Source: Desulfobacterales bacterium
GTDB taxonomy: Bacteria > Desulfobacterota > Desulfobacteria > Desulfobacterales > 4572-123
Length of the DNA stretch: 63,042 nt
Direction: 5' to 3'
NCBI GenBank assembly: GCA_029939715.1
Contig: JAOZSJ010000006.1
Span: 1-63,042, forward strand
This document shows positions 36,176 through 55,372 of this stretch, in pieces; within the stretch, counting starts at the first letter, position 1, and each line of letters opens with the position of its first letter. A program made the translations under genes and the position numbers. Under the pieces are notes generated by a model. The model saw only the letters and a list, made by a program, of their open reading frames with translations, was not told the DNA's origin and did no database searches.

Positions 36176-36223
36176 TAAATAATTCATATAAAAGCCTGGT
36201 GTAAGCAGGGCAAAGGAGAGGAT

Positions 36224-39200: not shown

Positions 39201-39511
39201 AATTGCCTATTGTCGGAGTCAATACATTTCGTGACCCGGATGCCGGCGGGCTGAATTTCGACGAGACCATGTCTTGCCTGGAGTTGTCCCGTTCCACCGA
39301 AGAAGAAAAACAGTCCCAGCTCAAGCGCCTTGCCGGGTTCAGGAGGCGCAACGAAAAAAAGGCACCGGAAGCCCTGGAAAAACTTCAAAAAACGGTTTTA
39401 TCCGGTGAAAATATTTTCGGAGAGCTTATGGATACGGTACGCTGCTGCAGCCTCGGCCAGATTACACAGGCCCTGTATGATGTCGGCGGCCGGTATCGTC
39501 GTAATATGTAG
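36224..39511 (+). CDS. icmF: IcmF, fused isobutyryl-CoA mutase/MeaB-like GTPase
   Basis: N-terminal B12 motif DGHD; GTGGAGKS GTPase; mutase domain with PTRMFAG (Phe at the position of MCM Tyr89); 1095 aa. Confidence 0.93.
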
Positions 39512-39549
39512 TGTTTTAAAACGCAATGGGAAAAAAGGAGATATGTAAA

Positions 39550-40725
39550 ATGCGGGAAGCAGTAATCGTAAGTGCGGTGCGTACTCCGCTGGGGGCATTT
39601 AACGGCTCTTTGAGCAGCATGGGCGCTACAAAACTCGGCGGTATTGTGATTGATGAAGCCGTAAAGCGGTCCGGAATTAATAAAGAGGCGGTTGACGAAG
39701 TGATTATGGGGCAGGTGCTGCCTTGCGGATATGGTCAGAATCCTGCCAGGCAGGCCGCTGTTCTGGGTGGTATGCCCTGGAATGTTGAATGTCTTACAGT
39801 GAATAAGGTCTGCGGTTCAGCCTTGAAATCCGTTATGCTTGCGGCTCAGGCAATTCAGACCGGTGACGCGGATGTGGTGGTTGCCGGTGGTATGGAATCC
39901 ATGAGCAAGGCTCCCTATTACCTGGAAAAAGCCAGGACCGGGTATCGCATGGGACCGGGAATCATCGAGGATCATATGGTCCATGACGGATTGTGGGATA
40001 TTGTCAATGATTTTCACATGGGCATTTCAAACGAGCTTTGTTCCGAAAAATATGATGTCAGCCGGGAAGACCAGGATCGGTATGCGGCCGAGTCCTATCG
40101 CCGTGCCCTTGATGCGGTTGAATCAGGGCGATTCAAAGAGGAAATTGTATCTGTTGAAATTCCGCAACGCAGGGGAGCCCCGGTTCTGTTCAACCGCGAT
40201 GAATGCCCCCGAAGAACCGATTACGAACGTCTGGCAAAGATGCCCGGTGCCTTTAAAAAAGGAGGATTGGGCACTGCCGGCAATGCGTCCATAATCAGTG
40301 ACGGAGCGGCGGCAGTGGTAGTGATGGCCAGAGACAAGGCCGAGGAATCGGGACTAAGTCCCATGGCCGCCATAGGGGCTCAGGCATCATTTGGTATTGA
40401 TATGAAATATGTTTTGATGGCGCCTTTGTGGGCAATTCCCAAATGCCTTAAAAAGGAAGGAATCGGCCTTAAAGATGTTGACCTTTACGAAATAAATGAG
40501 GCGTTCAGCGGTTCCACGGTTGGAGTTATAAATGAGCTTGGCCTGGATCCGGCAGTTGTGAATGTCAATGGCGGGGCAGTGGCCCTTGGTCATCCCATCG
40601 GCGCCAGCGGCTGCCGGGTTCTGGTGACCCTGCTTTATGAGATGATTCGGCAGGACAGGAAAACCGGACTGGCGTCACTGTGTCTGGGGGGCGGTGAAGC
40701 CGTTGCCATGGTGGTGAAACGGTAA
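39550..40725 (+). CDS. Acetyl-CoA C-acetyltransferase (thiolase)
   Basis: VNKVCGS, NEAF, GHPIGASG, LCLGGG; ATG 39550 after AAGGAG. Confidence 0.95.
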   Translation: MREAVIVSAVRTPLGAFNGSLSSMGATKLGGIVIDEAVKRSGINKEAVDEVIMGQVLPCGYGQNPARQAAVLGGMPWNVECLTVNKVCGSALKSVMLAAQAIQTGDADVVVAGGMESMSKAPYYLEKARTGYRMGPGIIEDHMVHDGLWDIVNDFHMGISNELCSEKYDVSREDQDRYAAESYRRALDAVESGRFKEEIVSVEIPQRRGAPVLFNRDECPRRTDYERLAKMPGAFKKGGLGTAGNASIISDGAAAVVVMARDKAEESGLSPMAAIGAQASFGIDMKYVLMAPLWAIPKCLKKEGIGLKDVDLYEINEAFSGSTVGVINELGLDPAVVNVNGGAVALGHPIGASGCRVLVTLLYEMIRQDRKTGLASLCLGGGEAVAMVVKR

Positions 40726-40815
40726 AATGAAAATTGATGGCCGCAGGGGTGATCCTTGTGGTCGTCCGGTCTATTGTAAAAAAGCAACGTGAAAACGATA
40801 AAAAGGAGATAATAA

Positions 40816-41664
40816 ATGGAAATAAAGACATTCGGCGTAATCGGCGCCGGGCAGATGGGAAATGGTATTGCTCAGGTCGCTGCCATGAGCGGGCTTGACG
40901 TGATCATGAATGATATAAAAACCGAATTTGTAGAAAAAGGCATTGGAAATATTACAAAAAATTTGACCCGCAGTGTAGACAGGGGAAAGATGACTGAACC
41001 TGAAAAATTCGCTGTTTTGGGAAGAATCAAAACCAGTGTTGAACTTGCCGACATGGCTTCAGCGGATTTTGTAGTCGAGGCAGCCACGGAAAACGAGTCC
41101 ATTAAGTTTCAGATTTTCAAAGACCTGGATCGAATATGCAAAAAAGGGGCAATCCTGGCCACCAACACCTCTTCGATTCCCATCGGGCGGATAGCAAACC
41201 AGACCGGGCGTCCGGACAAGGTGATCGGTATGCATTTCATGAATCCCGTGCCGGTGATGAAATTGATTGAGGTGATAAAAGGACTGGCAACCAGTGACGA
41301 GACATTTGATACGACATGGGAGCTTTCAGTCAAATTCGGTAAGACGCCGGCCGAGGCCAATGATTTTCCGGGATTTATCGCCAATCGTATCCTGCTGCCG
41401 ATGATCAATGAAGCAGTGTACTGTCTGTATCATGGTGTGGGAAAAGCCGAGGATATCGACACTGTAATGAAGCTTGGCATGAATCATCCCATGGGACCGC
41501 TGGCCCTTGCTGATTTGATTGGCCTGGATACCTGTCTGGCAATTATGGAAACCCTTTACGATGGTTTTTGCGATTCAAAATACAGGCCCTGCCCGCTGTT
41601 GAAAAAATATGTGGAAGCCGGCTGGCTCGGCAGAAAGACCGGACGCGGATTTTACGAATATTAA
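40816..41664 (+). CDS. hbd: 3-hydroxybutyryl-CoA dehydrogenase
   Basis: GAGQMG, TNTSS, GMHFMNP, HPMGPL, GWLGRKTGRGFY. Confidence 0.93.
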   Translation: MEIKTFGVIGAGQMGNGIAQVAAMSGLDVIMNDIKTEFVEKGIGNITKNLTRSVDRGKMTEPEKFAVLGRIKTSVELADMASADFVVEAATENESIKFQIFKDLDRICKKGAILATNTSSIPIGRIANQTGRPDKVIGMHFMNPVPVMKLIEVIKGLATSDETFDTTWELSVKFGKTPAEANDFPGFIANRILLPMINEAVYCLYHGVGKAEDIDTVMKLGMNHPMGPLALADLIGLDTCLAIMETLYDGFCDSKYRPCPLLKKYVEAGWLGRKTGRGFYEY

Positions 41665-41686
41665 GATAAGGATGGGGGAGGGAAGC

Positions 41687-42238
41687 ATGGTAAAAAAAAA
41701 AGCGGATGTGATTATTCCGGTGGGTAAAAAAATAAAACAGTTCCGGATCCAGAAAAAAATTACCCTGGACAATCTGGCCAATGACACCGGGTGTTCCATC
41801 GACTACCTCAAGGAGATTGAAGCCGGTAAGGCTATGCCGCCGGTTGGGACCCTGCTGCGGATTTCACGGGCTTTACAGATCGATTCAGGTATTCTTTTCA
41901 AAGAGCAGGAGTCAAAACTGCAAAGCCGCATCAAGGCTTATAACAAGCGCACCGACAACTATGCCTATACCACCCTGACCCCGGGTGCTGAAAACAAACA
42001 TCTCAAGGCGTTCCGGGTTGCCGTTGAAGGCAATTCAGAGCACACGGGCGTTGGATACCAGCACGAAGGTGAAGAATTTGTTTATGTGCTGAAAGGCAAA
42101 ATCGAGGTGGTGGTGGGAGATAATGTCAACAGCCTGAGTGAGGGGGAGTCATTGCATTTTAACTCAGGCATCCAGCACAAGCTGCGTAATATGGCTGCGG
42201 AAACCGCTGAATTTTTGGTCGTGATTTACGGGCCTTAA
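41687..42238 (+). CDS. XRE-family HTH + cupin regulator
   Basis: N-terminal HTH_3 pattern; HEGEEFVYVLKG...LHFNS cupin; ATG 41687. Confidence 0.88.
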   Translation: MVKKKADVIIPVGKKIKQFRIQKKITLDNLANDTGCSIDYLKEIEAGKAMPPVGTLLRISRALQIDSGILFKEQESKLQSRIKAYNKRTDNYAYTTLTPGAENKHLKAFRVAVEGNSEHTGVGYQHEGEEFVYVLKGKIEVVVGDNVNSLSEGESLHFNSGIQHKLRNMAAETAEFLVVIYGP

Positions 42239-42257
42239 GCCCTATAAGGAGAAAAGC

Positions 42258-43412
42258 ATGGCGTTCAATCTCACTGATGAACAAAAGATGATTCAGCATA
42301 TGATAAGGGAGTTTTCACGCAAGGTGGTGGCGGCTACGGCCGCGGAACGGGACCGCACCAAGGAATTCCCTGCCGATAATTTAAAAAAAATGTCGGATCT
42401 GGGTTTGATGGGGATGATGGTACCGCTGGAGTTTGATGGATCGGCGGCCGACACTGTGGGATATGTGCTGGCACTTTCGGAAATCGCCTATTCGTGTGCT
42501 TCAACCGCCGTTGTCATGTCGGTTCACAATTCCATTGTGTGTGAAAGCATATTGAATTTTGCTACCCGGGAACAAAAGGAAAAATATTTAAAGCCCCTTG
42601 CAATGGGTAAAATGATCGGTGCTTTTGCTCTGACCGAGCCCCATGCCGGCTCTGATCCGGTAAGTCAGTCCACCACGGCAGTGCGTGACGGGGATGAATA
42701 TATATTAAATGGAACCAAGCGGTTTACGACCACCGGCAAAAATGCCGGCCTGATCATTGTAACAGCTAAAACCGATGAAGCAATGCGACATAAAGGCATC
42801 AGCGCTTTTATGGTGGAACAGGGGACACCTGGTTTGATTGTCGGAGGCATAGAGGACAAAATGGGGCTTCGTGCCTCTGATACCGCAGACCTTATTTTTG
42901 AAAATTGCAGGGTTCCGGCAGGGAATATGCTGGGCGATCCCGGTGACGGGTTCAAGATCGCCATGAAGGGTCTGGACGGCGGGCGTATCGGAATTGCAGC
43001 CCAGTCAGTTGGTGTTGCCGGGGCGGCCCTGGATGCAGCGGTAAAATATGCTAAGGGAAGGGCCCAGTTCGGCCGAAAAATATCCAAGTTTCAGGGGTTG
43101 CGCTGGATCATTGCGGATATGGCTACCGAGCTGGAAGCTGCCCGCCAGTTGATGCTGTCGGCTGCCGCAATGAAGGATCGGGGTGAAAATTATACGGCAC
43201 AGGCTTCCATGGCCAAGCTGTTTGCGTCGGAGATGGTCAACAGGGTTACGGCGAAAGCCCTGCAGATGCACGGCGGGTACGGATTTACAAAAGACTATCC
43301 CGTGGAGCGTTTTTACCGGGATGCCAGGGTGTTTACTATTTATGAAGGAACATCGGAAATTCAGAGGATCGTGATTTCCAACAATATTTTAAAGGATAAA
43401 CGCAAACCATGA
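42258..43412 (+). CDS. Short-chain (butyryl-CoA-type) acyl-CoA dehydrogenase
   Basis: FALTEPHAGSD, KMGLRASDT, GGRIGIAAQ, HGGYG, IYEGTSEIQ. Confidence 0.93.
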   Translation: MAFNLTDEQKMIQHMIREFSRKVVAATAAERDRTKEFPADNLKKMSDLGLMGMMVPLEFDGSAADTVGYVLALSEIAYSCASTAVVMSVHNSIVCESILNFATREQKEKYLKPLAMGKMIGAFALTEPHAGSDPVSQSTTAVRDGDEYILNGTKRFTTTGKNAGLIIVTAKTDEAMRHKGISAFMVEQGTPGLIVGGIEDKMGLRASDTADLIFENCRVPAGNMLGDPGDGFKIAMKGLDGGRIGIAAQSVGVAGAALDAAVKYAKGRAQFGRKISKFQGLRWIIADMATELEAARQLMLSAAAMKDRGENYTAQASMAKLFASEMVNRVTAKALQMHGGYGFTKDYPVERFYRDARVFTIYEGTSEIQRIVISNNILKDKRKP

Positions 43413-43477
43413 TCGAATTGAACAGTGAACAGTGAATAGTGAGAATTGAAGAAATTCTGTCTATTTTAATCTGTAGA

Positions 43478-43960
43478 TTAATCAGAAAAGATTTTAGATG
43501 CCAGATTAATATCTTCAGGGCAGAATACAAACAGGCATTTTTCATCCGGGGATGAAACGGAGCCATACACGTAGTTGATATTAACGCCCTCTTCGCCGAA
43601 TTTTGTGGCCATTTTGGCCAGTTCACCAGGCCTGTTCTCAAGGCGAACGGCAATGACCGGTACGATATCAAAAATATAATTTTTTTGAGATAAGAGATCC
43701 ACTGCTTTATCAGTGTTATCCGTGAGCATTCGGATAAGCGCATACTGGGATGAGTCTTTGCTCATGGAATTGTAACTGGCGGCCGAAGCAATTCTTTTTA
43801 ACGACTTTCCCCTGGCCCTGAAAAGCTGCTGAACATAGGCGGATGCATCCTGAATGGTAAGGGCGTCGATATTTACTTTTTCTTCGGAAAAAAGTGTTGC
43901 CAGTTTTCCCAGTTCGCCGGGAACATTTTTTAAAAAAAGAGATATTTCAGTTCTAACCAT
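43478..43960 (-). CDS. Tandem ACT-domain protein
   Basis: LKNVPGEL...VNIDAL and LENRPGEL...VNINYVY ACT repeats. Confidence 0.85.
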   Translation of the reverse strand: MVRTEISLFLKNVPGELGKLATLFSEEKVNIDALTIQDASAYVQQLFRARGKSLKRIASAASYNSMSKDSSQYALIRMLTDNTDKAVDLLSQKNYIFDIVPVIAVRLENRPGELAKMATKFGEEGVNINYVYGSVSSPDEKCLFVFCPEDINLASKIFSD

Positions 43961-43986
43961 TTTTACACTCCTTTGATGGTATCATG

Positions 43987-45516
43987 TTATCCGGCTTGTT
44001 CACCGCCAAATAATTCTTTTGTTTTAGCTCGATCAATGCTGCCGTCCGGGGTGAGGGGCAGTTTGTCCGTAAATTCCACGTATTGCGGTTTTTTAAAACG
44101 GGCAATGCGTGATCCGACAAATTCGATCAGGTCGCCGGCATCAAGGCTGCGATCCGGTTTCAGAATACAGACGGCTTTGATGCCTTCTTTCCACTGGGGA
44201 TCGGGTATGCCGAATACCACCGTTTGTTCGATTGCCGGATGTTCAAGAATTATTTTTTCTACTTCCGCCGGGTAGACGTTTTCGCCGCCGGGCTTGATCA
44301 ATTCCTTTTCAGCTTTGCGGCCTTCATACCATAAAAAACCGTCTTCATCAAATCGGCCAAGATCACCGGTGTGATGCCAGTTGTTGCTAAATGTCAGTGC
44401 GGTGTCCTCTTCCAGTTTCCAATAGCCCTTAAATACCATGGGACCTCGCAGGGCAATTTCTCCGATTTCACCTTGTGACACAATTTGATCGGTATCATCC
44501 AGCATCACAACCCGGGCCAGGGGGGCCGGTTTTCCGGCCGAACCGGGGCGGTCATTAAACGGCCCTATAGTGGCCAGGCAGGAGGTTTCAGTCTGGCCAT
44601 ATATACTAAAAAACGTTCCTTTGGTCAGATTTTGATATTTTTTGATGGTTTCAGGTGTATCAAGCCCCACAATCGTTTTAAGGGAACTGATATCAAGTCC
44701 TGTTTCCGCTTGTTTTTTAAGAACGGAGTCCAATATCGGCGCAAAGTTGAAAAATATGGACACCTGTTTGTCGGCGATCAGTCGGACCGCCTGTTGAGCG
44801 TCAAATTTGCGCATATTTACATTCAGTGCCCCGGCCTGAAAGCTTTGAGCGGCCATGAACAGGCCTCCAACATGAAACAGCGGAAGCAGGTTTAAATGCA
44901 CATCATCGGCGGTCAAGCCAAAGCTATACATCAACTGCATGCCGGCACACAGGATGTTCCGGTGGCTCAGCAGTGCGCCCCGGGGCCGTCCGGCCACCGC
45001 GGCGGTGTGGATGATGATGAAGCCGTCATCAGAGGCAACCTCCGGCAATGATGTCGCTGCATTTCCGTTTGCCGATGCGTCATAGTCATCAAAGCCTCCC
45101 CGCCCGGATCGAAGGTTATAATATTTGTCAATAGAGGAAAGTTTGCCCTGGATTTTCTGAATCAGTGACTCAAATTCAGAATCGACAAAGAGACAGACCG
45201 GTTCACAGTCATTCAGGTTAAAAGCGATTTCACCGGCGGAAAGGCGCCAGTTAATCGGAACGACAATTGCGCCCGCGGCGGCGGCGGCCCCATACACGAT
45301 AAAATACTCAAGACAGTTCTTGCCCACCACGCCAATGCGTGATCCCTTTTTTACTCCGGATTTTATCAGGCCGGCGGCCAGGGAATCGACCCGGCGTTTT
45401 ACTGCTGAAAATGTAACAGTGCAATTGTCTTCCGCTTCAAACCAGGCAGGCCGGTTCGGATGGCAGCCGGCATTGCGGTTGACAACATCATAAAAAGTAA
45501 AATCGTAAAGCCCCAT
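43987..45516 (-). CDS. ANL-fold AMP-binding protein with degenerate catalytic motifs
   Basis: YGQTE, HTGDLG and IKPGGENVYP are present, but the P-loop reads HTAAVAGRPRG and A10 reads PDGSIDR. Confidence 0.85.
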   Translation of the reverse strand: MGLYDFTFYDVVNRNAGCHPNRPAWFEAEDNCTVTFSAVKRRVDSLAAGLIKSGVKKGSRIGVVGKNCLEYFIVYGAAAAAGAIVVPINWRLSAGEIAFNLNDCEPVCLFVDSEFESLIQKIQGKLSSIDKYYNLRSGRGGFDDYDASANGNAATSLPEVASDDGFIIIHTAAVAGRPRGALLSHRNILCAGMQLMYSFGLTADDVHLNLLPLFHVGGLFMAAQSFQAGALNVNMRKFDAQQAVRLIADKQVSIFFNFAPILDSVLKKQAETGLDISSLKTIVGLDTPETIKKYQNLTKGTFFSIYGQTETSCLATIGPFNDRPGSAGKPAPLARVVMLDDTDQIVSQGEIGEIALRGPMVFKGYWKLEEDTALTFSNNWHHTGDLGRFDEDGFLWYEGRKAEKELIKPGGENVYPAEVEKIILEHPAIEQTVVFGIPDPQWKEGIKAVCILKPDRSLDAGDLIEFVGSRIARFKKPQYVEFTDKLPLTPDGSIDRAKTKELFGGEQAG

Positions 45517-45603
45517 AAATTAACCTCCGGTCAACGGTTTGTGATAGCGTCTGGTTTGCTCGGGACGATCGGCGTTAATGCATCAGAATGCAAAATAAAA
45601 ATA

Positions 45604-45999
45604 TTAATGAATGGTTGTAACCGGGCAGGAGGCTCTTAAAATTATATATTGCGCTGTGGAGCCAAGCAATAGCTTTCGGGTTCGGGATTTTTTTTCGATG
45701 CCTACAAATATGTGTTTGATATCATATTCTTCGGCATACCGGATAATATCTTCCCCAGGCGAGAGCCCGCGGGATGTCTGATAACCCTCACATTCAATTC
45801 CGCTGGCTTTCACAAGCTCCATGGCGTATTTGAGGTCCTCTTTACTTTTTTTGATTGCTTTTAATTTTTCCCGGGGCCCGCCTTCCATGGATGTGATGAT
45901 GTGAACCACGGAATCATGTATTTTTGCATAATCTTTGGCCAGTTCCAAAGCGGCTTTTGCCTCATCGGATCCGTTGTACGCCACTAGAATATTCATCAA
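45604..45999 (-). CDS. Universal stress protein
   Basis: ILVAYNGS...ALELA; LLLGSTAQYI...PV. Confidence 0.9.
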   Translation of the reverse strand: MMNILVAYNGSDEAKAALELAKDYAKIHDSVVHIITSMEGGPREKLKAIKKSKEDLKYAMELVKASGIECEGYQTSRGLSPGEDIIRYAEEYDIKHIFVGIEKKSRTRKLLLGSTAQYIILRASCPVTTIH

Positions 46000-46130
46000 T
46001 GAGTCCTTTCACGGGATGATTGACATTCTTGTTGCAGACACTCACCGGATGGATGTTAAAAAGACCGTTTTGATTCCCCTGTCCTTGAATCATTGAGCCC
46101 TGCCTTTTTGTGACGGTCTATAGATCAACT

Positions 46131-46949
46131 TTACATCCAGCGCTTGCGTCTTTTATAGGATTTGACATTTTTAAAAGATTTTCTGCCGCCTCCCTGAGTA
46201 ATACCCATGTAAAATTCCTTGACATCCGGATTGTCCTTTAGCTCTCCTGATGGACCTTCAAGAACAATTTTTCCTGATTCCATGATGTAGGCATAGTCGG
46301 AAACTTCAAGGGCAATTTTAGCATTTTGTTCCACAACTAGAATGGTTGTATTCATTTCTTTGTTTATGGTTTTAATATTATCAAATATTTCTTTTACCAG
46401 AAGCGGTGCAAGTCCCAGGGATGGTTCGTCCAGCATTAGCATTTTAGGTTTTGCCATCAGTGCCCTGGCTATGGCAATCATCTGCTGTTCCCCGCCTGAG
46501 CAATAGCCTGCCATCCGGTTGGTAATTTTAGAAAGCCTGGGAAAATGGTCGTACATTAAATCATTGTCGGAACGGATATTTCCAATCCCGTCCTTACGGG
46601 TAATGGAACCGACTCTGATGTTTTCGTTTACTGTAAGATGTTTGAAGACACGGCGTCCTTCAGGAACCATAACCGCACCGAGCCGTACTACACTTGTCCC
46701 GAGAACATTGGTAATATCATTTCCGATAAATTTGATATAACCATCACGGATAAATCCGTTTTCCGGCTTCAGCAAACCGCTGATCGCCCGCAGGGTTGTG
46801 GTTTTTCCTGCTCCGTTGGTCCCTAACAGGGACACAATGCCGCCTTCTTTCACATTGAGGCTGACACCTCGAAGGACCTGGATAATGTCATTATAGACCA
46901 CTTCAATATTGTTAACTTCAAGCAGATTTTCTGTTTCTTTTTTATCCAT
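46131..46949 (-). CDS. LivF-like ABC ATPase
   Basis: GTNGAGKTT, SGGEQQM, LDEPSLGLAP, VEQN. Confidence 0.92.
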   Translation of the reverse strand: MDKKETENLLEVNNIEVVYNDIIQVLRGVSLNVKEGGIVSLLGTNGAGKTTTLRAISGLLKPENGFIRDGYIKFIGNDITNVLGTSVVRLGAVMVPEGRRVFKHLTVNENIRVGSITRKDGIGNIRSDNDLMYDHFPRLSKITNRMAGYCSGGEQQMIAIARALMAKPKMLMLDEPSLGLAPLLVKEIFDNIKTINKEMNTTILVVEQNAKIALEVSDYAYIMESGKIVLEGPSGELKDNPDVKEFYMGITQGGGRKSFKNVKSYKRRKRWM

Positions 46950-47012
46950 AGGACGACTTTTTCTTAAGATCCTTGAAAATTGGGTAAGTAATTTTCAGTT
47001 TGTTTGCATGCC

Positions 47013-47053
47013 CCCCTGTACCGCCGGCCAATGTCACGGCCGGGATACAGGGG
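47013..47053. other. Intergenic hairpin after the substrate-binding protein gene
   Basis: CCCCTGTA...TACAGGGG outer stem and CCGGCC...GGCCGG inner stem; may stabilise the SBP mRNA segment or terminate transcription (inference). Confidence 0.55.
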
Positions 47054-47099
47054 TAACCATTGCAGGCTGAATCTATTTTAATAGCATTTAGGTTGGATA

Positions 47100-48326
47100 C
47101 TATTTGATTTTTCCCGTATACTCAGGGATAAACGGAGCGCCTACGGATTTAAAAGCGCCGTTTTTCACCGCGTACAACTGCAGGGTATCAACACCGGCAT
47201 GGTCGGTTTTTGAATAGGTGACCGGCCCGACAGTTGTTACAGGATAAAAAGCGTTTATGCCGTTCATCTGCTGGAGTTCTTCATAAAGAATTTCTTTTGT
47301 GATTTTATTGCCCTTTGCCTTTGCACGCAGAATCACTTCTGCTGCCACCTGGGCCACCATTACGCCGTTGGCGTAATTGTGAGAATTGGCTGTTTTGTCA
47401 TCCCGGCCATACTTTTTGGCCAGCGCAAGTTGTGCATCCGTTCCCACACCCGGCTCGGATGTAACAATGTAAGAAGTTGTCCAATAGTAATTCTCAGAAG
47501 CAGGGCCGGCCAGTGCCACCAGATCATTGCCTCCGGTGTAGTGACATCCCATAAAAGTTATCTTTCCCTTTTCACCAAAGGTTTTGGCGACAATGCCCAG
47601 GCGGGCGGCATCTTTGATCATGGTGGCCACCGGGGACTGAATCGTCTGGCTGATGACATACTGGACACCCTTACTGCCAAGTCGTTTGAGCATGGCAGTG
47701 TTATCCAGATCTTTGCCATGCTCGACAATTTCGACGATCTCCATGTCAAGTCCTGCCTTGACTGATTTTTCCACGTCTGAAACAGGTCCTCTGCCAAATG
47801 CGGACGGATGGATAAACATCGCCACTTTAGGGGTACCTCCTTTGTGATTTTTTACGATATATTCTGCCAGGCCGATGGCTTGGGCCGAATAGGAGGCAAT
47901 GGGCAGAAAGATGTAGTTTGAATCAATCAGGTTACCGGCATGAAATGAAGCCGGAATTACCGGCATCTGCTCTTCTTCAAAATCTTTTTTCAGTGCCAGG
48001 GTGCTGCCCGTTGAGTAGTTGAGATAAAAAACAATGCCCTGATCTAAGAAATCTTCAAAATTTCGCTTTGTTACGGCCGATTTATACTGATCATCCCTTA
48101 TTGTACAATCAATTTTGTCATTTCCAAGAAGTTTCATGTCATTGACATATTTGAAATAATCTTCGACACCCATGGAATATGGGCTACCGGCATCTGAAGT
48201 TGGCCCGGTAATGGCAAGCGACAACGCCAGTTTGTACACTTCTCCCGCCTGAGCCTGAAAAGCGAACGTGAACACTACGATAAAAGAAAGTAAAATTTTG
48301 ATCATCATCATTTTTTTGTTCTTCAT
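47100..48326 (-). CDS. Liv-type (Peripla_BP_6) ABC substrate-binding protein
   Basis: Signal peptide; AITGPTSDAG; RDDQY; PKVAMFI; context. Confidence 0.85.
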   Translation of the reverse strand: MKNKKMMMIKILLSFIVVFTFAFQAQAGEVYKLALSLAITGPTSDAGSPYSMGVEDYFKYVNDMKLLGNDKIDCTIRDDQYKSAVTKRNFEDFLDQGIVFYLNYSTGSTLALKKDFEEEQMPVIPASFHAGNLIDSNYIFLPIASYSAQAIGLAEYIVKNHKGGTPKVAMFIHPSAFGRGPVSDVEKSVKAGLDMEIVEIVEHGKDLDNTAMLKRLGSKGVQYVISQTIQSPVATMIKDAARLGIVAKTFGEKGKITFMGCHYTGGNDLVALAGPASENYYWTTSYIVTSEPGVGTDAQLALAKKYGRDDKTANSHNYANGVMVAQVAAEVILRAKAKGNKITKEILYEELQQMNGINAFYPVTTVGPVTYSKTDHAGVDTLQLYAVKNGAFKSVGAPFIPEYTGKIK

Positions 48327-48461: not shown

Positions 48462-49556
48462 TCAGTAACGAAACGGCCACAATTTGGTATAGGATCGGGC
48501 AATGCGCCACCAGTTGGCGATTCCCCTTGGCTCAAACATCAGAAACAGCACAATGACCATGCCGAATGTAAATGGTTTTAATGCGGTGGCAAGGTTCATG
48601 TTTGATGAAAGCAGATGCCCCGCCTTTTCAGCAAGGGTTTCCACCTGAAGATCCAGGGTCATTATGGCTGCCGGTCCCCATAATGACCCATTCAGTGTCC
48701 CGAGGCCGCCCACGATAGCCATGGCAAGATACATGATCGACTCATGTAGAGAAAAGGATTCAATGCCGACCCCTCTGTACACATACGCGTGAAGAGCACC
48801 GGCCACGCCCGCAAAAAAGCCGGCCAGGGCAAAGGCGTAAACCTTTGTAAGACCGGGGTGCATGCCCATTGCATCCGCAGCCCTGTCATTGTCGCGCACC
48901 GCACTCAAACATCTGCCGTAGCGTGTGCGCAAGAGGTTTCTCATCATAAATCCGCAAAGGACGATCACCACAAGAATGACATAATACCAGAACAGGTAAT
49001 GCTCTTTTCTGGCCACTTTGCCGGTGATCCAGAACACCCTGCCCACGGAAATCGTCTGCCCCTGGTCAAAAAAATTCATAAAATTAATGGTCCAGGTAAA
49101 AATCATCTGAAAAGAGAGGGTGGCGATGGCAAGGTAAAGATGCTTCAGCCGCATTGCCGGAAGGCCGACAATGGCGCCGAAGATTGCTCCCACAAATCCG
49201 GCTACCAGGATCAGCAGGGGCCAGGCATGGGTCAATATAATATGAGAGTCCCCGATAACCCTGCAAAAAGATGCAATTGTATATGCGCCAATACCCACAA
49301 AGGCTGCGTGGCCGATGGAAATCAACCCTGCAAAGCCGGTCACAAGGTTAAGGCCGAGTACCGCAACCACTGCAATGAGAATATTATCAATGACCAGCAT
49401 GTATTTGTTGCTCAGGGAAAAAAAGAACGGCCATACAAAAAACAATGTAAGAAAAACTGAAAATATGGTCCGGTCCAGGTGCGTGAAATAAATTCTTTGT
49501 TCGTCTTTATATGAGGTAAAGTAATTACCGGTTGCTAACCATCTATTTGTTGCCAT
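48462..49556 (-). CDS. LivM-like ABC permease
   Basis: GFAGLISIGHAAF, YLAIATL, AVRDNDRAA, VGGLGT. Confidence 0.9.
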   Translation of the reverse strand: MATNRWLATGNYFTSYKDEQRIYFTHLDRTIFSVFLTLFFVWPFFFSLSNKYMLVIDNILIAVVAVLGLNLVTGFAGLISIGHAAFVGIGAYTIASFCRVIGDSHIILTHAWPLLILVAGFVGAIFGAIVGLPAMRLKHLYLAIATLSFQMIFTWTINFMNFFDQGQTISVGRVFWITGKVARKEHYLFWYYVILVVIVLCGFMMRNLLRTRYGRCLSAVRDNDRAADAMGMHPGLTKVYAFALAGFFAGVAGALHAYVYRGVGIESFSLHESIMYLAMAIVGGLGTLNGSLWGPAAIMTLDLQVETLAEKAGHLLSSNMNLATALKPFTFGMVIVLFLMFEPRGIANWWRIARSYTKLWPFRY

Positions 49557-49559
49557 AAT

Positions 49560-50453
49560 TTATACCCGTTCAATTTCATGTATACCAAAGAGTCCATGTG
49601 GCTTAAAGAGCAGTATAACCAGTAAAATAATATAAGGCAGCACTTCAGCGGTGCCGTTAAGGCCAAAATTGCCGTCCAGATATCCGCTTGCGAACTGCTG
49701 AATCAGCCCCATGATGATGCCGGCCACCACAGCGCCCAGGATTGAATCCAACCCTCCTAATATGACAACCGGAAAAACAGCAATGCCGAACGCCTGAAGA
49801 GTTTCAAAATTAAGGCCGGTGATATTGCCGATGATACAGCCGGCTGCAGCAGCACTCAATCCGGCAGTGGCCCAGGCAAGGCCGAATACCCTGGGAACGG
49901 AGATGCCCACGGACATTGAGGCAAACTGGTCATCCGATACCGCCCGCATGGATATTCCCACGGTTGATTTTTTGAAAAATAGTGAAAAGCCCCCAATCAT
50001 AACGGCTGTAACCAGAACACCCACAAGCTGGGTCCATGAAATGGACACTCCTCCAAAGGCAATCAGTTCGGCAGGTAAAAATTGTGGGAAAGAAAAATTT
50101 ACAGATCCAAATGGCGTCAGAAAAATCAGACCGTCAAGGATTGACATCAGCCCGATGGTGACCATGATGACCGAGATGATGGGTTCTCCGATCAGGCGGC
50201 GTAAAAAAATCCTCTCCACGCTCATGGCCAGGAAAAAAGTAATCGCAAGACTAAGGAAAAAAGACAGATAGATCGGAATCCCCACCCACCCGGTAAGGGC
50301 ATAGGCAATAAAAGCACCGGAGGCGATGATTTGTCCGTGTGCAATGTTAAGCACCTTGCTGGATTTGTAGATCAGCACAAATCCAAGTGCTGCCAGTGCG
50401 TATATGGAACCTACCACAATACCGCTGACCACAAGTTGGAAAAAATAACTCAT
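49560..50453 (-). CDS. LivH-like ABC permease
   Basis: GSIYALAALGFVLIY, MRAVSDD, VILGGLDSILGA. Confidence 0.9.
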   Translation of the reverse strand: MSYFFQLVVSGIVVGSIYALAALGFVLIYKSSKVLNIAHGQIIASGAFIAYALTGWVGIPIYLSFFLSLAITFFLAMSVERIFLRRLIGEPIISVIMVTIGLMSILDGLIFLTPFGSVNFSFPQFLPAELIAFGGVSISWTQLVGVLVTAVMIGGFSLFFKKSTVGISMRAVSDDQFASMSVGISVPRVFGLAWATAGLSAAAAGCIIGNITGLNFETLQAFGIAVFPVVILGGLDSILGAVVAGIIMGLIQQFASGYLDGNFGLNGTAEVLPYIILLVILLFKPHGLFGIHEIERV

Positions 50454-52384
50454 CAGACCCCTTCCATCGTATAAAAGGAAATTTTAGTTTTAACAGCCGT
50501 TGACTGGCCGTCCTGGTACTGAAACATTGCCTCCACCTCTTTTTCCTTTATGCTTTCATCATATAATGCGTCATAGAGATTCTGGTATTTTTCACGAACA
50601 AACTTTCTGCGGATTTTACCGGTTTTTGTCAGTTCATCGTCATCCATATCCAGAAGTTTGTAAAGCAGGGCAAAACGCTTGATCTTGAAATGCTCCTTTT
50701 CAACCCTTTCGTTTATCTCTTTAACCTGATCGTAAATAAGTTCGGCCACTTCCGGCTTGGCCGACAGGTCCATGTAGGTTGTATAGGAGATTCCTCTGTC
50801 TTCGGCCCATTTACCAACAACAATCGGGTCTATGTTTATAAGGGATGCGACGTAGTCCCTTTTGTTACCGAATATTACAGCTTCCTTTATGTAGGGGCTG
50901 AATTTAAGTTTGTTTTCGAGGAACATGGGGGAGAACATTTCATCCCTGTTGTTATGCATTACGTCCGACAGGCGGTCTATTACAATAAGGTGCCCGTGTT
51001 CGTCGATATAACCCGCATCCCCGGAATGGAGCCAGCCGCCTTCAAGCAGTTCCTTTGTTTTTTCCGGCATTTCAAAATATCCGGGTGTCACACAGGGGGA
51101 TTTTGAAAGAATTTCACCTTCCTTGGAAATTTTGCACCGGGTGTCTGGAAGGGGTTTGCCCACCGTATCCGGCCTCACATCTCCGTCCCGGTGCATGTAG
51201 GCAATTCCCACGATTTCCGTCTGGCCGTAAATCTGTTTCAGGTTGACTCCGATGGCCTGATAAAAGGTAAACAGCTCCGGCCCGAGGGCCGCTCCGCCTG
51301 TATAAGCGCGCCGAAGGCGCAACAGGCCGATCTGGTTGATAAGAGGCCTGAATATTATTTGATATCCGAGCCATGACTTGAATCTCAAGCCGGCCGGCAT
51401 TTTTTTCCCGGTCATGCGATAGGTCGCCGATTTTTCGCCGATTTTGATAAAGTAGTTGTATAGCATCCGGTTAAGCCAGTAAGACTCATCGATTTTAAGC
51501 CATATCTGGGATCTTATGGTCTCATAAATCCTCGGCGCGCCGAACATGAAATGTGGGCCGATCTCTTTTAAATCCTCCATGGCCGTTTCCACCGATTCGG
51601 GAAAGTTGATGGTGATCCCTGTGGCCATGGCAATACCGAATGAGTTCATCTGTTCGCCGATCCAGGCAAAGGGAAGAAACGAAACATATTCGTCCGTGTC
51701 CTCAAGGGTATCAACCTCTGTAATCTGAAGGCCCATGCTGATATAATTTTTATGGGTGAGCATGGTGCCCTTGGGAAGACCGGTTGTTCCAGATGTGAGA
51801 CAGAGGTGGCACGTATCCTCGGGTTTGCCCTGATCTACAAATGATTCAAAAAGATCCGGTTTTTCCAGGTGGATATTTTCCCCGATTTCGTAAAGATCCT
51901 CGATATACATGAACCAGTTATCTGTTTTGTAATCACGCATGCCCCTGGGATCTTCGTAAATCACTTTCTTAACAAACGGAACCTGCTCCCTTATTTCGAC
52001 AATTTTGTCAACCTGCTCCTGATCATTGCAAAAGACCACGGCAACCTTCATGTATGCGAGCAACTGGGCTATTTCATCAGGCATGGTTGTCTGATAGATG
52101 CCTGCTGAAATTGCACCGATGGACTGTGCGCCAAGAGCCATGAAAAGCATTTCAGGAATATTGTCCCCGATCAGGGCGATGATATCATTCTTTTTTACTT
52201 CAATTTTGGAAAGGCCCAATCCGACTTTCCGGACATGGTCGTAATACTGGCTCCAGGTGTAGCTGTTCCAGCATCCAAAATCTTTTTCCCGCAGCGCGAC
52301 CTTATCACCTGTATTTTGTACCCGCCATCGCAGTAACTGCGGTATGCTGAGTCCTGTTAGATGTTTTTTGATGTCGTTATCCAA
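50453..52384 (-). CDS. Long-chain acyl-CoA synthetase embedded in ABC operon
   Basis: LTSGTTGLPKG, YGQTE, LHSGD, LTKTGKIRR; overlaps the livH-like start by 1 nt and abuts the livG-like stop. Confidence 0.9.
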   Translation of the reverse strand: MDNDIKKHLTGLSIPQLLRWRVQNTGDKVALREKDFGCWNSYTWSQYYDHVRKVGLGLSKIEVKKNDIIALIGDNIPEMLFMALGAQSIGAISAGIYQTTMPDEIAQLLAYMKVAVVFCNDQEQVDKIVEIREQVPFVKKVIYEDPRGMRDYKTDNWFMYIEDLYEIGENIHLEKPDLFESFVDQGKPEDTCHLCLTSGTTGLPKGTMLTHKNYISMGLQITEVDTLEDTDEYVSFLPFAWIGEQMNSFGIAMATGITINFPESVETAMEDLKEIGPHFMFGAPRIYETIRSQIWLKIDESYWLNRMLYNYFIKIGEKSATYRMTGKKMPAGLRFKSWLGYQIIFRPLINQIGLLRLRRAYTGGAALGPELFTFYQAIGVNLKQIYGQTEIVGIAYMHRDGDVRPDTVGKPLPDTRCKISKEGEILSKSPCVTPGYFEMPEKTKELLEGGWLHSGDAGYIDEHGHLIVIDRLSDVMHNNRDEMFSPMFLENKLKFSPYIKEAVIFGNKRDYVASLINIDPIVVGKWAEDRGISYTTYMDLSAKPEVAELIYDQVKEINERVEKEHFKIKRFALLYKLLDMDDDELTKTGKIRRKFVREKYQNLYDALYDESIKEKEVEAMFQYQDGQSTAVKTKISFYTMEGV

Positions 52385-53146
52385 TTAATCTTCTCCGATG
52401 TAGGCTTCTATTACTTTTGGATTTGAAGCCACTTCCTCCGGTGTGCCTGAACCGATCACCCGGCCGAAATCCAGAACATAGATTTGATCTGAAATATCCA
52501 TTACAACACCCAGGTCATGTTCCACCAGTATAATCGTGGTTTCGCGATCCTGTTTTATATCCATGGTGAACCGGACGATGTCTTCCTTTTCCTCTATATT
52601 CATTCCGGCCATGGGCTCATCCAGAAGCAGCAGTTCAGGGTCCAGTGTAAGTGCCCGTGCAACCTCAACCCGTTTTTGAATACCGTAGCTGAGATTGCCT
52701 ACAATACTCTTGCGGTATGGTTCCAGTTCCATGAAGTCGATCACATTTTCCACATATGCCCTGTTTTCAGCTTCAAGCCTTGAGGCTTTTCCGAAGTATA
52801 AAGCAGCGTGGAGGAAACTATATTTAAGGTTGGTGTGCCGTGCCAGCAGCAGGTTGTCCAGCACTGAAAGGCCGCCAAACAGTTCCAGGTTCTGGAAAGC
52901 TCTGGCAATGCCCATTTTAGTTACCTGATGCGGTGATGAGTGGGTAAGGTTTTTTTCGCCGTAGAATATTTCTCCTTTCGTGGGATGATAAAAACCGGAT
53001 ATGCAGTTTAATAGGCTGGTTTTTCCTGCTCCATTGGGCCCGATAATCGATGTGATAAGTCCGGGTTCAATGGCCATACTGACCCTTGAAAGAGCGTTCA
53101 GCCCGCCAAATGAAAGCGTAATGTTTTTGACATTGAGAGGTTCCAT
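52385..53146 (-). CDS. LivG-like ABC ATPase
   Basis: GPNGAGKTS, LSYGIQKR, LDEPMAG, VEHD. Confidence 0.92.
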   Translation of the reverse strand: MEPLNVKNITLSFGGLNALSRVSMAIEPGLITSIIGPNGAGKTSLLNCISGFYHPTKGEIFYGEKNLTHSSPHQVTKMGIARAFQNLELFGGLSVLDNLLLARHTNLKYSFLHAALYFGKASRLEAENRAYVENVIDFMELEPYRKSIVGNLSYGIQKRVEVARALTLDPELLLLDEPMAGMNIEEKEDIVRFTMDIKQDRETTIILVEHDLGVVMDISDQIYVLDFGRVIGSGTPEEVASNPKVIEAYIGED

Positions 53147-53496: not shown

Positions 53497-55086
53497 CTAC
53501 TGATCAAAACTCAAGAGCCGCGATCGCAGATTGGTACGGGTGTTTTTAATTTTTAACTTAGTGCGGATATTATGACGATGAAACAGTACCGTATTTTTCG
53601 AGATAAGCAATACTTCCGCAATTTCTTTATTAGTGTGGCCTTCTTTAATAAGATTGGCGACCTTAATTTCAGTCGGAGTGAAATTAAAGTATTTTGTCGA
53701 GAGTTTATTGATAAACGGTGAGACAATATTGTCCAGGTTGGATTCAAGAATGCTGAGCATGGTTAAGTGGCGGGTGCCTAGGCGGGCTTTTTTAATTTTG
53801 TTCAAATATGGGGTGACCAGTTCTTTTACGTTGGATAATACATTTTCCTGCAATTCGGTTTTGTCTATTTCTCTTTGCTTGATCAGGACTTTTAGAGCGG
53901 TATTGACCTCCTCCAGGTGCTGGGCCTGGGCCTGCTGTTCCTTTTCGCGCTGCCGCAGGGCTTTTTCAGCCCGTTTGCGTTCCTCGATTTCAATACCCAG
54001 TTTACTGTTGGCCCGGCCAAGTTCCCCGGTGCGCTCTTCCACCAGTTCTTCCAACTGATTTTGATAATTGTATAGAACCCTTTCCGCGATTTTTCGAGAG
54101 CTGATATCCCGTAATGTGACGATGTTGCCTGATGGCTTCCCGGATTGATCCAGGTAGAGCGTGGAGCTGATTTGTACATCAAGCAGACGGCCGTCTTTGG
54201 TAAATCGCCGAGTCTCGAATAGATTGATTTTTTTACCGTTGAGCATGGCATCAATGGCTGCCTTGGTTTCAGGCCAGGCCTCGGGAGGAACAAAATCGAC
54301 ATGTTTACCGAGAAGCTCATCACGTGTCAATCCAAAAGTTTGTTCAAAGGCGGGATTGACATAAGTGGCTACTCCTTCCATATTGTATACTACAATCGGA
54401 TCGGGAGATGATTCCAGCAGGTTAAGGTAGCGTTGTTCACTTTCGCGGATAAGGGCTTCGGCTTTTCTTCGTTCTTCCAGTTCCCGGCGGGCATTTGCGT
54501 ATAATTCCGCCTTTTCCAGGGCAAGCAGGGCCAGGGTAGCCAAACGGGAAAGAATCATAACGTCATCCTGATCGAATCGTTTTTCCGGCTTGATATGTGC
54601 CAGGCCCATGATTCCCCTGATGCTTTGACCAGCATCCAGAGGGATGCCCATCACGCAGTGCAGGTCGTTTAAATCAGGGTCGGGGATGCGGTTTTCCCAA
54701 GTTTCGTAATCATTGATCAATATCGGCCTGCCCGTTTGCCAGACCGTGCCGCCTATCCCTTCGCCAAATCGTGTCCGGCGGCCCACCTGTTGTTTGAAAA
54801 AGCCCGTGCCCTGACAAATCCGGATGTGGCCGTCGTCTGATTTTTTATCTTTTAAATAAATGAAAACATGATCGGTACGAGCCAGGGCCGAGGCACTTTT
54901 CAAGATGGTTTCCAACAACTGGGTTTTGTCCAGCTTATTGATAAGGCCCAGAGATGTTTCATGCAAAATCGTCAGATATCTGTTCTGCTGCTGGACCGCC
55001 TTTTCCGCCCGGGCCAGTTTTTCGGATCGACGGCTTAATGAATCGACCATGTGTCGCAGTTCATCATATGTCGGTTCAGCACTCAT
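53497..55086 (-). CDS. GAF-PAS-LuxR HTH one-component regulator
   Basis: GAF (GEGIGGTVWQTG...IPL); PAS (NPAFEQTFG...RDIS); coiled coil; FTPTEIKVA...NKEIA...NTVLFHR HTH; no receiver domain. Confidence 0.88.
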   Translation of the reverse strand: MSAEPTYDELRHMVDSLSRRSEKLARAEKAVQQQNRYLTILHETSLGLINKLDKTQLLETILKSASALARTDHVFIYLKDKKSDDGHIRICQGTGFFKQQVGRRTRFGEGIGGTVWQTGRPILINDYETWENRIPDPDLNDLHCVMGIPLDAGQSIRGIMGLAHIKPEKRFDQDDVMILSRLATLALLALEKAELYANARRELEERRKAEALIRESEQRYLNLLESSPDPIVVYNMEGVATYVNPAFEQTFGLTRDELLGKHVDFVPPEAWPETKAAIDAMLNGKKINLFETRRFTKDGRLLDVQISSTLYLDQSGKPSGNIVTLRDISSRKIAERVLYNYQNQLEELVEERTGELGRANSKLGIEIEERKRAEKALRQREKEQQAQAQHLEEVNTALKVLIKQREIDKTELQENVLSNVKELVTPYLNKIKKARLGTRHLTMLSILESNLDNIVSPFINKLSTKYFNFTPTEIKVANLIKEGHTNKEIAEVLLISKNTVLFHRHNIRTKLKIKNTRTNLRSRLLSFDQ

Positions 55087-55372
55087 GCAGGCAGTATAGC
55101 AGATGGCCTTTATGATTAGCAACCTTTTGCATATACGATTTCGCAGGTGATGATTTTTTCATGATGTCGTTTTAAAAAAAGCGTAAATCGGTGAAGGAAG
55201 GCGGTCTGTTTGTGTTTTCAGCCTGATCCTGTCAAAGGCCGGGCAATGCCGGGCACGATGATTGTTGACAAAAAATAAAAATAATAATAGTTAACATATA
55301 TTATGTACGAAATTCATTTAAAATAATTGATCATTATTTATTATTGGCAACCTCAACAAAGGAGAAACAATT

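Follow-up and report, generated by a model that had tools for sequence, protein, structure and literature searches.

A PtmA2-clade ANL protein with a T-A-A P-loop ends a carboxylate-uptake operon in a Desulfobacterales bacterium and may be a thioesterification-only ligase

The stretch of DNA analysed here, called the window below, comprises 63,042 nucleotides from a Desulfobacterales bacterium. On its minus strand, at 43987..45516, lies an open reading frame uninterrupted for 509 aa, with an RBS-like GGAGG 7 nt 5' of the ATG. The product, which we call ANLx, has a Pfam AMP-binding domain (E 1.2e-65) followed by AMP-binding_C (E 1.9e-15), the two-domain ANL fold. Among the enzyme genes of a LIV/HAAT-type ABC operon for carboxylate uptake, ANLx comes last. 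The operon begins with a LivG-type ABC ATPase (52385..53146) and continues with an embedded canonical 643-aa ligase of AMP-binding plus AMP-binding_C_3 architecture, ACS643 (50453..52384), a LivH-type permease (49560..50453), a LivM-type permease (48462..49556), a periplasmic substrate-binding protein of the Peripla_BP_6 family (47100..48326) and a LivF-type ABC ATPase (46131..46949). A 131-aa member of the universal stress protein (USP) family (45604..45999) separates LivF from ANLx, and a 160-aa tandem-ACT protein (43478..43960), with an RBS of its own, begins 26 nt beyond the ANLx stop codon. The six ABC-operon genes, USP and the ACT pair are all on the minus strand like ANLx, the co-orientation that an earlier sequence-only reading of this DNA had described. 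Convergent with ANLx and ACT, on the plus strand, is an acyl-CoA dehydrogenase (ACAD) gene (42258..43412), the last gene of a TetR-IcmF-thiolase-3HCDH-ACAD block; at several other loci an ACAD gene follows ANLx on the same strand. Upstream of the operon is a minus-strand gene for a GAF-PAS-LuxR regulator (53497..55122), and loci L003, L011, L190 and L199 have such a regulator in the corresponding place. A scan of 43200-47200 for promoters and terminators gave nothing above shuffled expectation.

What sets ANLx apart is the state of two motifs, whose register against the canonical YTSGTTGxPKG...LSHxN and LPKxxxGKILK was fixed by flanking conserved residues. The aligned A3 region, or P-loop (residues 170-180; 44977..45009, minus strand), reads H-T-A-A-V-A-G-R-P-R-G. 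Canonical ANLs have S at position 172 and an invariant G at 173, where ANLx has A172 and A173; the second half of the loop, G-R-P-R-G, is retained. The aligned A10 region (residues 490-496; 44029..44049, minus strand) reads P-D-G-S-I-D-R, with Ser493 at the position of the adenylation Lys. Across the 38 canonical ANLs compared, neither the A10 Lys nor the Gly at 173 varies. The two other ligases of the window have both motifs intact: ACS643 reads LTSGTTGLPKG and KTGKIRRK, and a divergent 553-aa ligase reads YTTGTTGKPKG and SVGKFNKK. To this extent the sequence-only reading, which had pointed to an intact 509-aa ANL protein with both motifs altered beside two ligases that keep them, is confirmed by reading frame, Pfam and motif register. 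ANLx also lies outside the canonical, FadD-like AMP-forming acyl-CoA synthetases as defined by P-loop, A10 Lys and the NCBIfam model for long-chain ligases, NF004837, against which it scores 393.6 bits where the cut-off is 476. The A8 region, in contrast to the altered motifs, is preserved: residues 400-420 (44257..44319, minus strand, by alignment) read R-K-A-E-K-E-L-I-K-P-G-G-E-N-V-Y-P-A-E-V-E, and K408 aligns with luciferase K443, whose role we take from established knowledge.

Are the altered motifs signs of decay? The same reading had proposed aligning orthologues, and the alignments are clear. No variation occurs at T171-A172-A173 in 120 close homologues, nor in 34 sequences reaching down to 34% identity, the wider sampling having covered about 30 further clusters formed at 50% identity. 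In the subfamily that contains the Rhodopseudomonas palustris-type protein of PDB entry 3ivr, T-A-A is present in 111 of 113 clusters and T-A-S in the other two. The A10 Lys is found in none of the 120 close homologues and in none of the 113 clusters; in the 3ivr subfamily the position is E, D or A, and often acidic. A few clade members (P0148, P0184, P0251) have a Lys there again, which counts against the reading we favour below. Equally invariant down to 34% identity are A4 His215, Q308 and E310 of A5, T383-G384-D385 of A7, and, in A8, R400 and K408-x-G410-G411-E412-N413; P416, E418 and E420 are likewise invariant in the clade. The AMP-binding motifs (QTE, TGD and Arg400) are thus kept, as are His215 and the Lys-x-Gly-Gly-Glu-Asn stretch, which are tied to the second half-reaction. 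Because the T-A-A replacement is itself invariant, selection for a new state, and not drift, is indicated, and dN/dS of ANLx against four orthologues is 0.13-0.15. The loss of the adenylation residues is ancient and under purifying selection; recent decay is ruled out. We also considered, and rejected, the class of ANL pseudoenzymes: only adenylation-specific residues are changed, with neither loss of residues for all steps nor relaxed selection.

The closest solved relative of ANLx is 3ivr, from R. palustris CGA009 (HMMER E 1.9e-142; 47% identity), a 2009 structural genomics entry described as a "putative long-chain-fatty-acid CoA ligase". The two proteins belong to the same family: 3ivr reads HTAAVGGRPRG and GAIDR, and its A8 region is identical. 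The modelled part of the crystal is the N-terminal domain only, about 393 residues; a literature search for papers citing 3ivr as a PDB entry found none. The next solved relative is PtmA2 (E 2.8e-70), with the P-loop YTAAMSGRQCG and an A10 Lys replaced by Ala. Conversely, the best non-self PDB match of PtmA2 is 3ivr, at 229.6 bits versus 189 for the next. A tree was built from PtmA2, 3ivr, 38 members of the family and an outgroup limited to 14 canonical ANL sequences; the 38 comprise 33 representatives of clusters, P0001 and four of the close homologues. All but the outgroup share one branch, with SH-aLRT support of 99, and of 98.3 when the P-loop and A10 columns are removed. By raw identity PtmA2 and ANLx are at 33%, no closer than ANLx is to the best canonical paralogue of its own genome. 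The AF2 model of ANLx (pLDDT 89.4) has 3ivr, FadD13 and PtmA2 as its top Foldseek matches, with a TM-score of 0.96 to 3ivr over the N-terminal domain. We tried the modelled conformation as evidence and set it aside: ANLx lies closest to the second-conformation structures 4g37_B, 5bsr and PtmA2 5ups (rmsd 3.7-4.3 Å), but the canonical 553-aa ligase, modelled as a control, likewise takes the second conformation (5bsr at 3.3 Å; 3rg2), so the comparison does not discriminate.

PtmA2, from Streptomyces platensis (PDB entries 5e7q, 5upq, 5ups and 5upt), belongs to platensimycin and platencin biosynthesis. A ptmA2 mutant is reported to accumulate acyl-adenylate. To our knowledge PtmA2 is the sole characterised member of the clade and the sole ANL enzyme studied that does not adenylate, and it serves an antibiotic pathway. 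In two papers (PMC6594144; PMC7204872), both citing Wang et al. 2018 (PMID 29867143), the two steps are described as split, PtmA1 carrying out adenylation and PtmA2, reported not to adenylate, carrying out thioesterification only. ANLx shares with PtmA2 the ANL fold, the T-A-A P-loop, the replaced A10 Lys, the conserved A5 GQTE and A8 ...ENxxPAEVE motifs and the common clade. The differences are also plain. PtmA2 carries further changes, GRQCG, LKSAAEN and HTTD, that ANLx does not have, and it sits in a secondary-metabolite cluster with PtmA1 as dedicated partner, whereas ANLx sits in an uptake operon of primary catabolism whose embedded ligase looks complete.

Might ANLx nonetheless be a complete, ATP-using acyl-CoA ligase, a second one whose substrate range among the imported acids differs, in which the T-A-A loop and some other basic residue (R177, R179, R496 or K498, for example) have taken over the canonical roles? 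All of ANLx outside A3 and A10 resembles a working ligase, and the fold and the A4, A5, A7 and A8 motifs are those of the canonical synthetases FadD13 (3r44), FadD5 (8r2q), MatB (4fut) and ttLC-FACS (1ult), at 25-33% identity. The G-R-P-R-G half of the P-loop is kept, and a terminal position in an uptake operon, with ACAD neighbours, suits an ordinary second ligase. The canonical synthetases, however, retain (T/S)(S/T)G(T/S)TGxPKG and the A10 Gly-Lys, both of which are altered in ANLx. The invariance of Gly173 and the A10 Lys among the canonical ANLs speaks against replacement of their roles, as do an A10 residue in the 3ivr subfamily that is often Glu or Asp, opposite in charge to the catalytic Lys, the shortfall against NF004837, and the report that PtmA2 does not adenylate. 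We regard a complete ligase as unlikely.

A second alternative is the one that the sequence-only reading preferred: an ANL fold without catalysis, serving as sensor or scaffold by binding AMP, acyl-AMP or acyl-CoA, with the ABC transporter as a possible target of regulation or USP and ACT as possible partners. In its favour are the loss of adenylation residues from a protein that is still conserved, and the two small proteins of ligand-binding type, USP and tandem ACT, that flank ANLx in the near clade. The tandem-ACT gene is present only in that near clade, and USP, ACT or both stand beside ANLx in 8 of 60 family loci, all 8 of them among the 27 loci whose identity is 57% or more. Where the same kind of operon occurs elsewhere, the USP slot is empty or holds a LEA_2-like lipoprotein. 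USP and ACT are thus lineage-specific neighbours, and the family as a whole does not conserve the proposed regulatory module. Other members of the family have ACAD, enoyl-CoA hydratase and 2-oxoacid dehydrogenase genes as neighbours; the invariant H215, K408 and G410-G411 serve second-conformation chemistry, beyond binding; and the characterised relative PtmA2 is an enzyme. Since adenylation-specific residues alone have changed and ANLx groups with PtmA2, we do not favour the sensor or scaffold, to which we give only a slight chance; ANLx is probably not a dead sensor.

Our preferred reading, held with middling confidence, is that ANLx is a thioesterification-only ligase that needs a donor of acyl-AMP. 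By analogy with PtmA2 it would be a functional member of its clade, in which the residues for ATP-dependent adenylation have been replaced (P-loop Ser/Gly/Thr by T-A-A; A10 Lys by Ser, Glu, Asp or Ala) and those that hold AMP, like those tied to the second conformation, are strictly retained. On this analogy ANLx would be unable to form acyl-AMP from acid and ATP, and would instead bind a preformed acyl-adenylate and catalyse acyl-AMP + CoA -> acyl-CoA + AMP. ACS643 would be the most obvious adenylate donor, and the acyl-CoA product could pass to the adjacent acyl-CoA dehydrogenase, thiolase and IcmF block, which may serve catabolism of short or branched acyl-CoA. The sequence state, clade membership, conservation and synteny of ANLx are matters of observation; its half-reaction, donor and substrate are inferred.

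The synteny bears on the donor in both directions. A LivF-type ATPase, the commonest gene directly upstream of ANLx orthologues, takes that place at 22 of the 42 loci with at least 3 kb of upstream sequence. In the close subfamily, the canonical, ACS643-type ligase (~640 aa) of the same LIV-type operon, the putative adenylating partner, lies within 11 kb of ANLx at 9 of 12 well-flanked loci. The link between ANLx and the operon persists where the operon is rearranged (L114, L116) and where its proteins have diverged by 22-55%, and a Spirochaetes MAG shows it too. Among 301 Desulfobacterota genomes sampled, 42 have ANLx; an ACS643-type ligase is present in 39 of these 42 versus 92 of the 259 without ANLx. 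One subfamily of the clade is thus linked to an operon for the uptake of fatty acids or carboxylates. Against the preferred reading, the same ABC operon occurs without ANLx at 14 fetched loci, and many of the more distant family members (41-49% identity) are solitary: their neighbours are unrelated genes, and a second ANL is absent for 9 kb around. Neighbour enrichment for these distant members (92 ORFs, 123 Pfam families) found no family in more than four ORFs, and a literature search on the ABC-plus-ligase operon in sulfate reducers returned nothing specific.

Is ACS643 specialised as a donor? PtmA1 and the fatty acyl-AMP ligases (FAAL), which are adenylation-only proteins, illustrate that the two ANL half-reactions can be separated onto different proteins, the half lost in them being opposite to the half lost in ANLx; ACS643 bears no recognisable sign of that type. 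We entertained a thioesterification-dead ACS643, on the strength of an Asp at the conserved A8 Gly (HNNRDEMFSP), and dropped it: the position varies among G, D, S, E, Q and R in operons with and without ANLx. No alignment column of the ACS643-type ligases separates the two sets of operons, and we saw no systematic difference between them. Because these ligases are alike in both settings, ACS643 is, as judged from sequence, in all probability complete as an enzyme, and no more than a candidate for a dedicated source of free acyl-AMP.

The optional presence of ANLx has also to be weighed for the alternatives. Operons that function with one ligase make ANLx an optional extra, as a complete second ligase would be. 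They fit, too, a catalytic ANLx with another job: one that scavenges stray, reactive acyl-adenylates, passing them to CoA or hydrolysing them; that runs in reverse, acyl-CoA + AMP -> acyl-AMP + CoA, so that a canonical ligase, also reversed, could yield ATP for an anaerobe short of energy; or that transfers the acyl group to a non-CoA thiol or an amine. Housekeeping or scavenging accords better than an obligate partnership with the many members that have no neighbouring ANL, and the family is widespread in the anaerobic Desulfobacterota. The repeated tight placement behind LivF argues instead that the role of ANLx is bound up with what the transporter imports, and the motifs of CoA-using ligases, A8 GGEN and the A4 His, are kept. 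Such other jobs together seem to us quite improbable.

The analysis shows that a gene of the window falls in the PtmA2 clade, that this clade is an old, large and little-studied branch of the acyl-CoA ligases, and that one of its subfamilies is operon-tied. Thousands of such proteins are annotated as "AMP-binding protein" or "long-chain acyl-CoA synthetase"; should they prove unable to use ATP, metabolic reconstructions that count clade proteins as ligases are wrong. A more speculative extension of thioesterification-only activity, and one we think doubtful, is that primary carboxylate catabolism commonly relies on a PtmA1/PtmA2-style split, in which a transporter-linked ligase would hand acyl-adenylate to an ATP-blind, thioesterifying ANL ending the same LIV-type operon, in thousands of bacteria of several phyla (Desulfobacterota, Alphaproteobacteria, MAGs labelled Chloroflexota, Nitrospiraceae and Spirochaetes). 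The operon-tied subfamily opens the splitting of ligase half-reactions in primary metabolism to direct test, and a genetically tractable host, R. palustris, and a crystal structure, 3ivr, already exist for the clade. One R. palustris strain encodes a protein with 96% identity to 3ivr, and its gene is solitary: an enoyl-CoA hydratase gene and two ACAD genes lie 2.5 kb off, and at a distance of 7 kb, on the opposite strand, is a LIV-type ABC cluster that includes a ligase gene.

ANLx, a 509-aa ANL-fold protein, is encoded on the minus strand at 43987-45516 by 509 open codons; its ATG is preceded, at a spacing of 7 nt, by a GGAGG ribosome-binding site, and the Pfam domains AMP-binding (E 1.2e-65) and AMP-binding_C (E 1.9e-15) cover the entire length. 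The canonical motifs Y-T-S-G-T-T-G-x-P-K-G and L-P-K-x-x-x-G-K-I-L-K were aligned to ANLx with the L-S-H-x-N after the P-loop (A3) and the L-P before A10 as anchors. In this register the P-loop reads H-T-A-A-V-A-G-R-P-R-G (residues 170-180) and the A10 region P-D-G-S-I-D-R (residues 490-496). Both motifs are intact in the 643-aa ligase of the ABC operon (LTSGTTGLPKG and KTGKIRRK) and in the divergent 553-aa ligase (YTTGTTGKPKG and SVGKFNKK), so that reading all three sequences confirms the contrast drawn by the sequence-only reading. In ANL enzymes the P-loop binds the beta- and gamma-phosphates, and the P-loop and the A10 Lys (K529 of firefly luciferase) serve the adenylation half-reaction.

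Are the altered motifs a sign of decay? The sequence-only reading had proposed conservation of the altered P-loop and of the Lys loss as a test, and the outcome is positive. Among 120 homologues of 63-88% identity, H170, T171, A172, A173, G176, P178 and G180 are invariant, and the A10 column holds Ser in 94, Thr in 10, Glu in 5, Gly in 4 and Lys in none; dN/dS against four orthologues is 0.13-0.15 at dS 0.5-0.9. Farther out, when 1.84 billion cluster representatives were searched, the best 150 matches included 34 single-domain relatives of 440-600 aa, one per distinct 50%-identity cluster and 34-63% identical to ANLx, of which about 30 retain T-A-A. Among the columns that never vary in an alignment of 34 such relatives are T171-A172-A173, H215 (A4), Q308 and E310 (A5), T383-G384-D385 (A7) and, in A8, R400, L406-I407-K408, G410-G411-E412-N413, P416, E418 and E420. 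The A8 Lys-x-x-Gly is the counterpart of luciferase K443/G446, an element linked to the enzyme's second conformation. Since the AMP-holding residues and this motif are invariant while the P-loop and A10 are altered, the changes are confined to residues assigned to adenylation. The alphaproteobacterial subfamily around the R. palustris structure 3ivr (113 clusters) has a like pattern, with Glu in 41, Asp in 31 and Ala in 29 at the A10 position. Measured against 38 canonical ANLs, the clade-defining columns are A172 (canonical Ser), A173 (canonical Gly, invariant), F258, P260, H381, D495 and R496. Judged by these alignments, the altered motifs are an old conserved state and not decay. One small subclade (cluster representatives P0148, P0184 and P0251; 34-40% identity) has the T-A-A P-loop, yet carries an A10 Lys (G-K-V-D-R-E) and P-K-G in the P-loop; its members may be partial revertants.

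The closest solved relative of ANLx is 3ivr (E 1.9e-142, 47% identity), a structural-genomics "putative long-chain-fatty-acid CoA ligase" from R. palustris CGA009, for which our literature search found no citing paper. Next (E 2.8e-70) is PtmA2, reported to be the non-adenylating acyl-CoA ligase of the Streptomyces platensis platensimycin/platencin pathway (PMC6594144; PMC7204872; both citing Wang et al. 2018). Its P-loop is YTAAMSGRQCG, and its A10 Lys is replaced by Ala. PtmA2 itself has 3ivr as its top non-self PDB match, at 229.6 bits versus 189 for the next. A 54-sequence maximum-likelihood tree places PtmA2, 3ivr and every family representative on a single branch (SH-aLRT 99), apart from 14 canonical ANLs. 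The canonical sampling is thin: nine are paralogues encoded in the window's genome, and five come from other genomes. Support is 98.3 once the P-loop and A10 columns are taken out, so the grouping is not driven by the trait. The raw identity of ANLx to PtmA2, 33%, is not above that of ANLx to its best canonical paralogue. By its placement in this tree, ANLx is a member of the PtmA2/3ivr clade.

What, then, might ANLx do? The best-supported reading, to which we give about even confidence, is a half-ligase that performs thioesterification only. The proposal that ANLx is a pseudoenzyme, acting as a non-catalytic sensor or scaffold, drew on the altered motifs; it is not borne out by the clade or by changes limited to adenylation-assigned residues, and we hold it quite unlikely. 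A complete ligase whose ATP site is unorthodox would accommodate the invariant AMP-holding residues, and would have to work with the altered P-loop and A10; we think it unlikely. Structure prediction was tried as evidence for the half-reaction. The AlphaFold2 model (pLDDT 89.4; low confidence just at residues 141-160, the P-loop at 171-180 and the hinge at 401-420) superposes full-length on second-conformation structures. So does a control model built for the canonical 553-aa ligase, and the predicted conformation therefore carries no weight and was rejected.

As a half-ligase, ANLx would be blind to ATP in the manner of PtmA2, taking an acyl-adenylate from the operon's 643-aa ligase, making the CoA thioester, and passing the acyl-CoA to the neighbouring dehydrogenase and beta-oxidation genes. 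The minus-strand run comprises a GAF-PAS-LuxR regulator, a LivG-type ATPase, the 643-aa ligase, LivH and LivM permeases, a binding protein, a LivF-type ATPase, a USP, ANLx and a tandem-ACT protein. Converging on the ANLx and ACT genes is a co-directional plus-strand block (35525-43412) encoding a TetR regulator, a 1095-aa fused B12-binding/MeaB/mutase protein of IcmF-type isobutyryl-CoA mutase architecture, a thiolase, a 3-hydroxyacyl-CoA dehydrogenase, an HTH-cupin regulator and an acyl-CoA dehydrogenase. This block is one of short or branched acyl-CoA catabolism, and its position beside ANLx suggests import of short or branched-chain acids.

The 60 family loci, collected from isolate genomes, MAGs and metagenomes, show the operon linkage repeatedly. 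Of the 42 loci whose upstream sequence reaches 3 kb or more, 22 have a LivF-type ATPase immediately upstream on the same strand; of the 29 with 8 kb or more, 13 have a ligase of the 643-aa type within 11 kb (9 of 12 in the subfamily of at least 57% identity, versus 4 of 17 among more distant members). The linkage survives divergence of the operon proteins to 22-55% identity; it is also seen in a Spirochaetes MAG (L015) and, despite rearranged internal order, in L114 and L116. At these last two loci (L114 4460-11500; L116 2697-11503) the order is, for example, PermH-PermM-SBP-ligase-LivG-LivF with ANLx directly after, and an acyl-CoA dehydrogenase gene follows on the same strand, immediately adjoining in L116. 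Across 301 genomes of the phylum, ANLx occurs in 42 and the 643-aa type ligase in 131; the ligase is present in 39 of the 42 versus 92 of the 259 without ANLx, as raw counts that ignore kinship. ANLx is probably a ligase that carries out thioesterification only and is repeatedly associated with a LIV-type uptake operon containing another ligase. Apparently new are how large the clade is and that it is linked to an uptake operon of primary metabolism.

The more distant family members frequently occur alone, or lie amid acyl-CoA dehydrogenase, enoyl-CoA hydratase, SDR and 2-oxoacid dehydrogenase genes. In an R. palustris strain (L202; protein 96% identical to 3ivr) the 3ivr orthologue (10001-11509) stands alone, with a cluster of small uncharacterised genes on one side and a TonB-ExbBD cluster on the other. 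An enoyl-CoA hydratase and two acyl-CoA dehydrogenase genes follow 2.5 kb downstream, and 7 kb off on the opposite strand is a LIV-type ABC cluster that includes a 566-aa AMP-binding gene.

The 643-aa ligase (50453-52384, minus strand) is the obvious acyl-adenylate donor, but it is the weakest link of the proposed mechanism. It keeps the P-loop, A5, A7 and the A10 Lys, its type is present in 14 fetched operons without ANLx, and we found no sequence feature distinguishing the ligases of operons with and without ANLx; ANLx is thus an accessory and optional. Adenylates released by the first ligase may be completed or rescued by it, or it may act on a different acid, or have a role not yet conceived. 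Another catalytic role, such as scavenging, the reverse reaction or another acceptor, would sit with such an accessory, and we consider it quite unlikely beside thioesterification. Residues about 469-490 of the window's 643-aa ligase read DRLSDVMHNNRDEMFSP, with Asp at the A8 Gly position conserved in most ANLs; HTKNGDMFSP is the reading in L003 and L004, its nearest orthologues. In a set of 31 orthologues the position is occupied by G, D, S, E, Q or R, irrespective of whether ANLx is present, and the Asp was dropped as a lead because the position varies throughout the family, whose A8 is unusually relaxed for an ANL family.

A regulatory module of ANLx with the USP and ACT proteins had also been proposed; these genes occur at just 8 of the 60 loci and are additions peculiar to the window's near clade. 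In this lineage the place between livF and ANLx is taken by the USP gene (45604-45999, minus strand); in other operons of this type the place goes to a lipoprotein of roughly 200 aa (e.g. L007 9336-9932) or is empty. The USP nucleotide-binding motif is G-x2-K-x9-G-S, with Lys where the usual G-x2-G-x9-G-S/T has its second Gly. At L086 (9253-15844), PermH-PermM-LivG-LivF, an ANL of about 510 aa (26% identical to ANLx) and a T-A-A-clade member (49% identical) lie on one strand, so that an ANL of another type can pair with the T-A-A clade.
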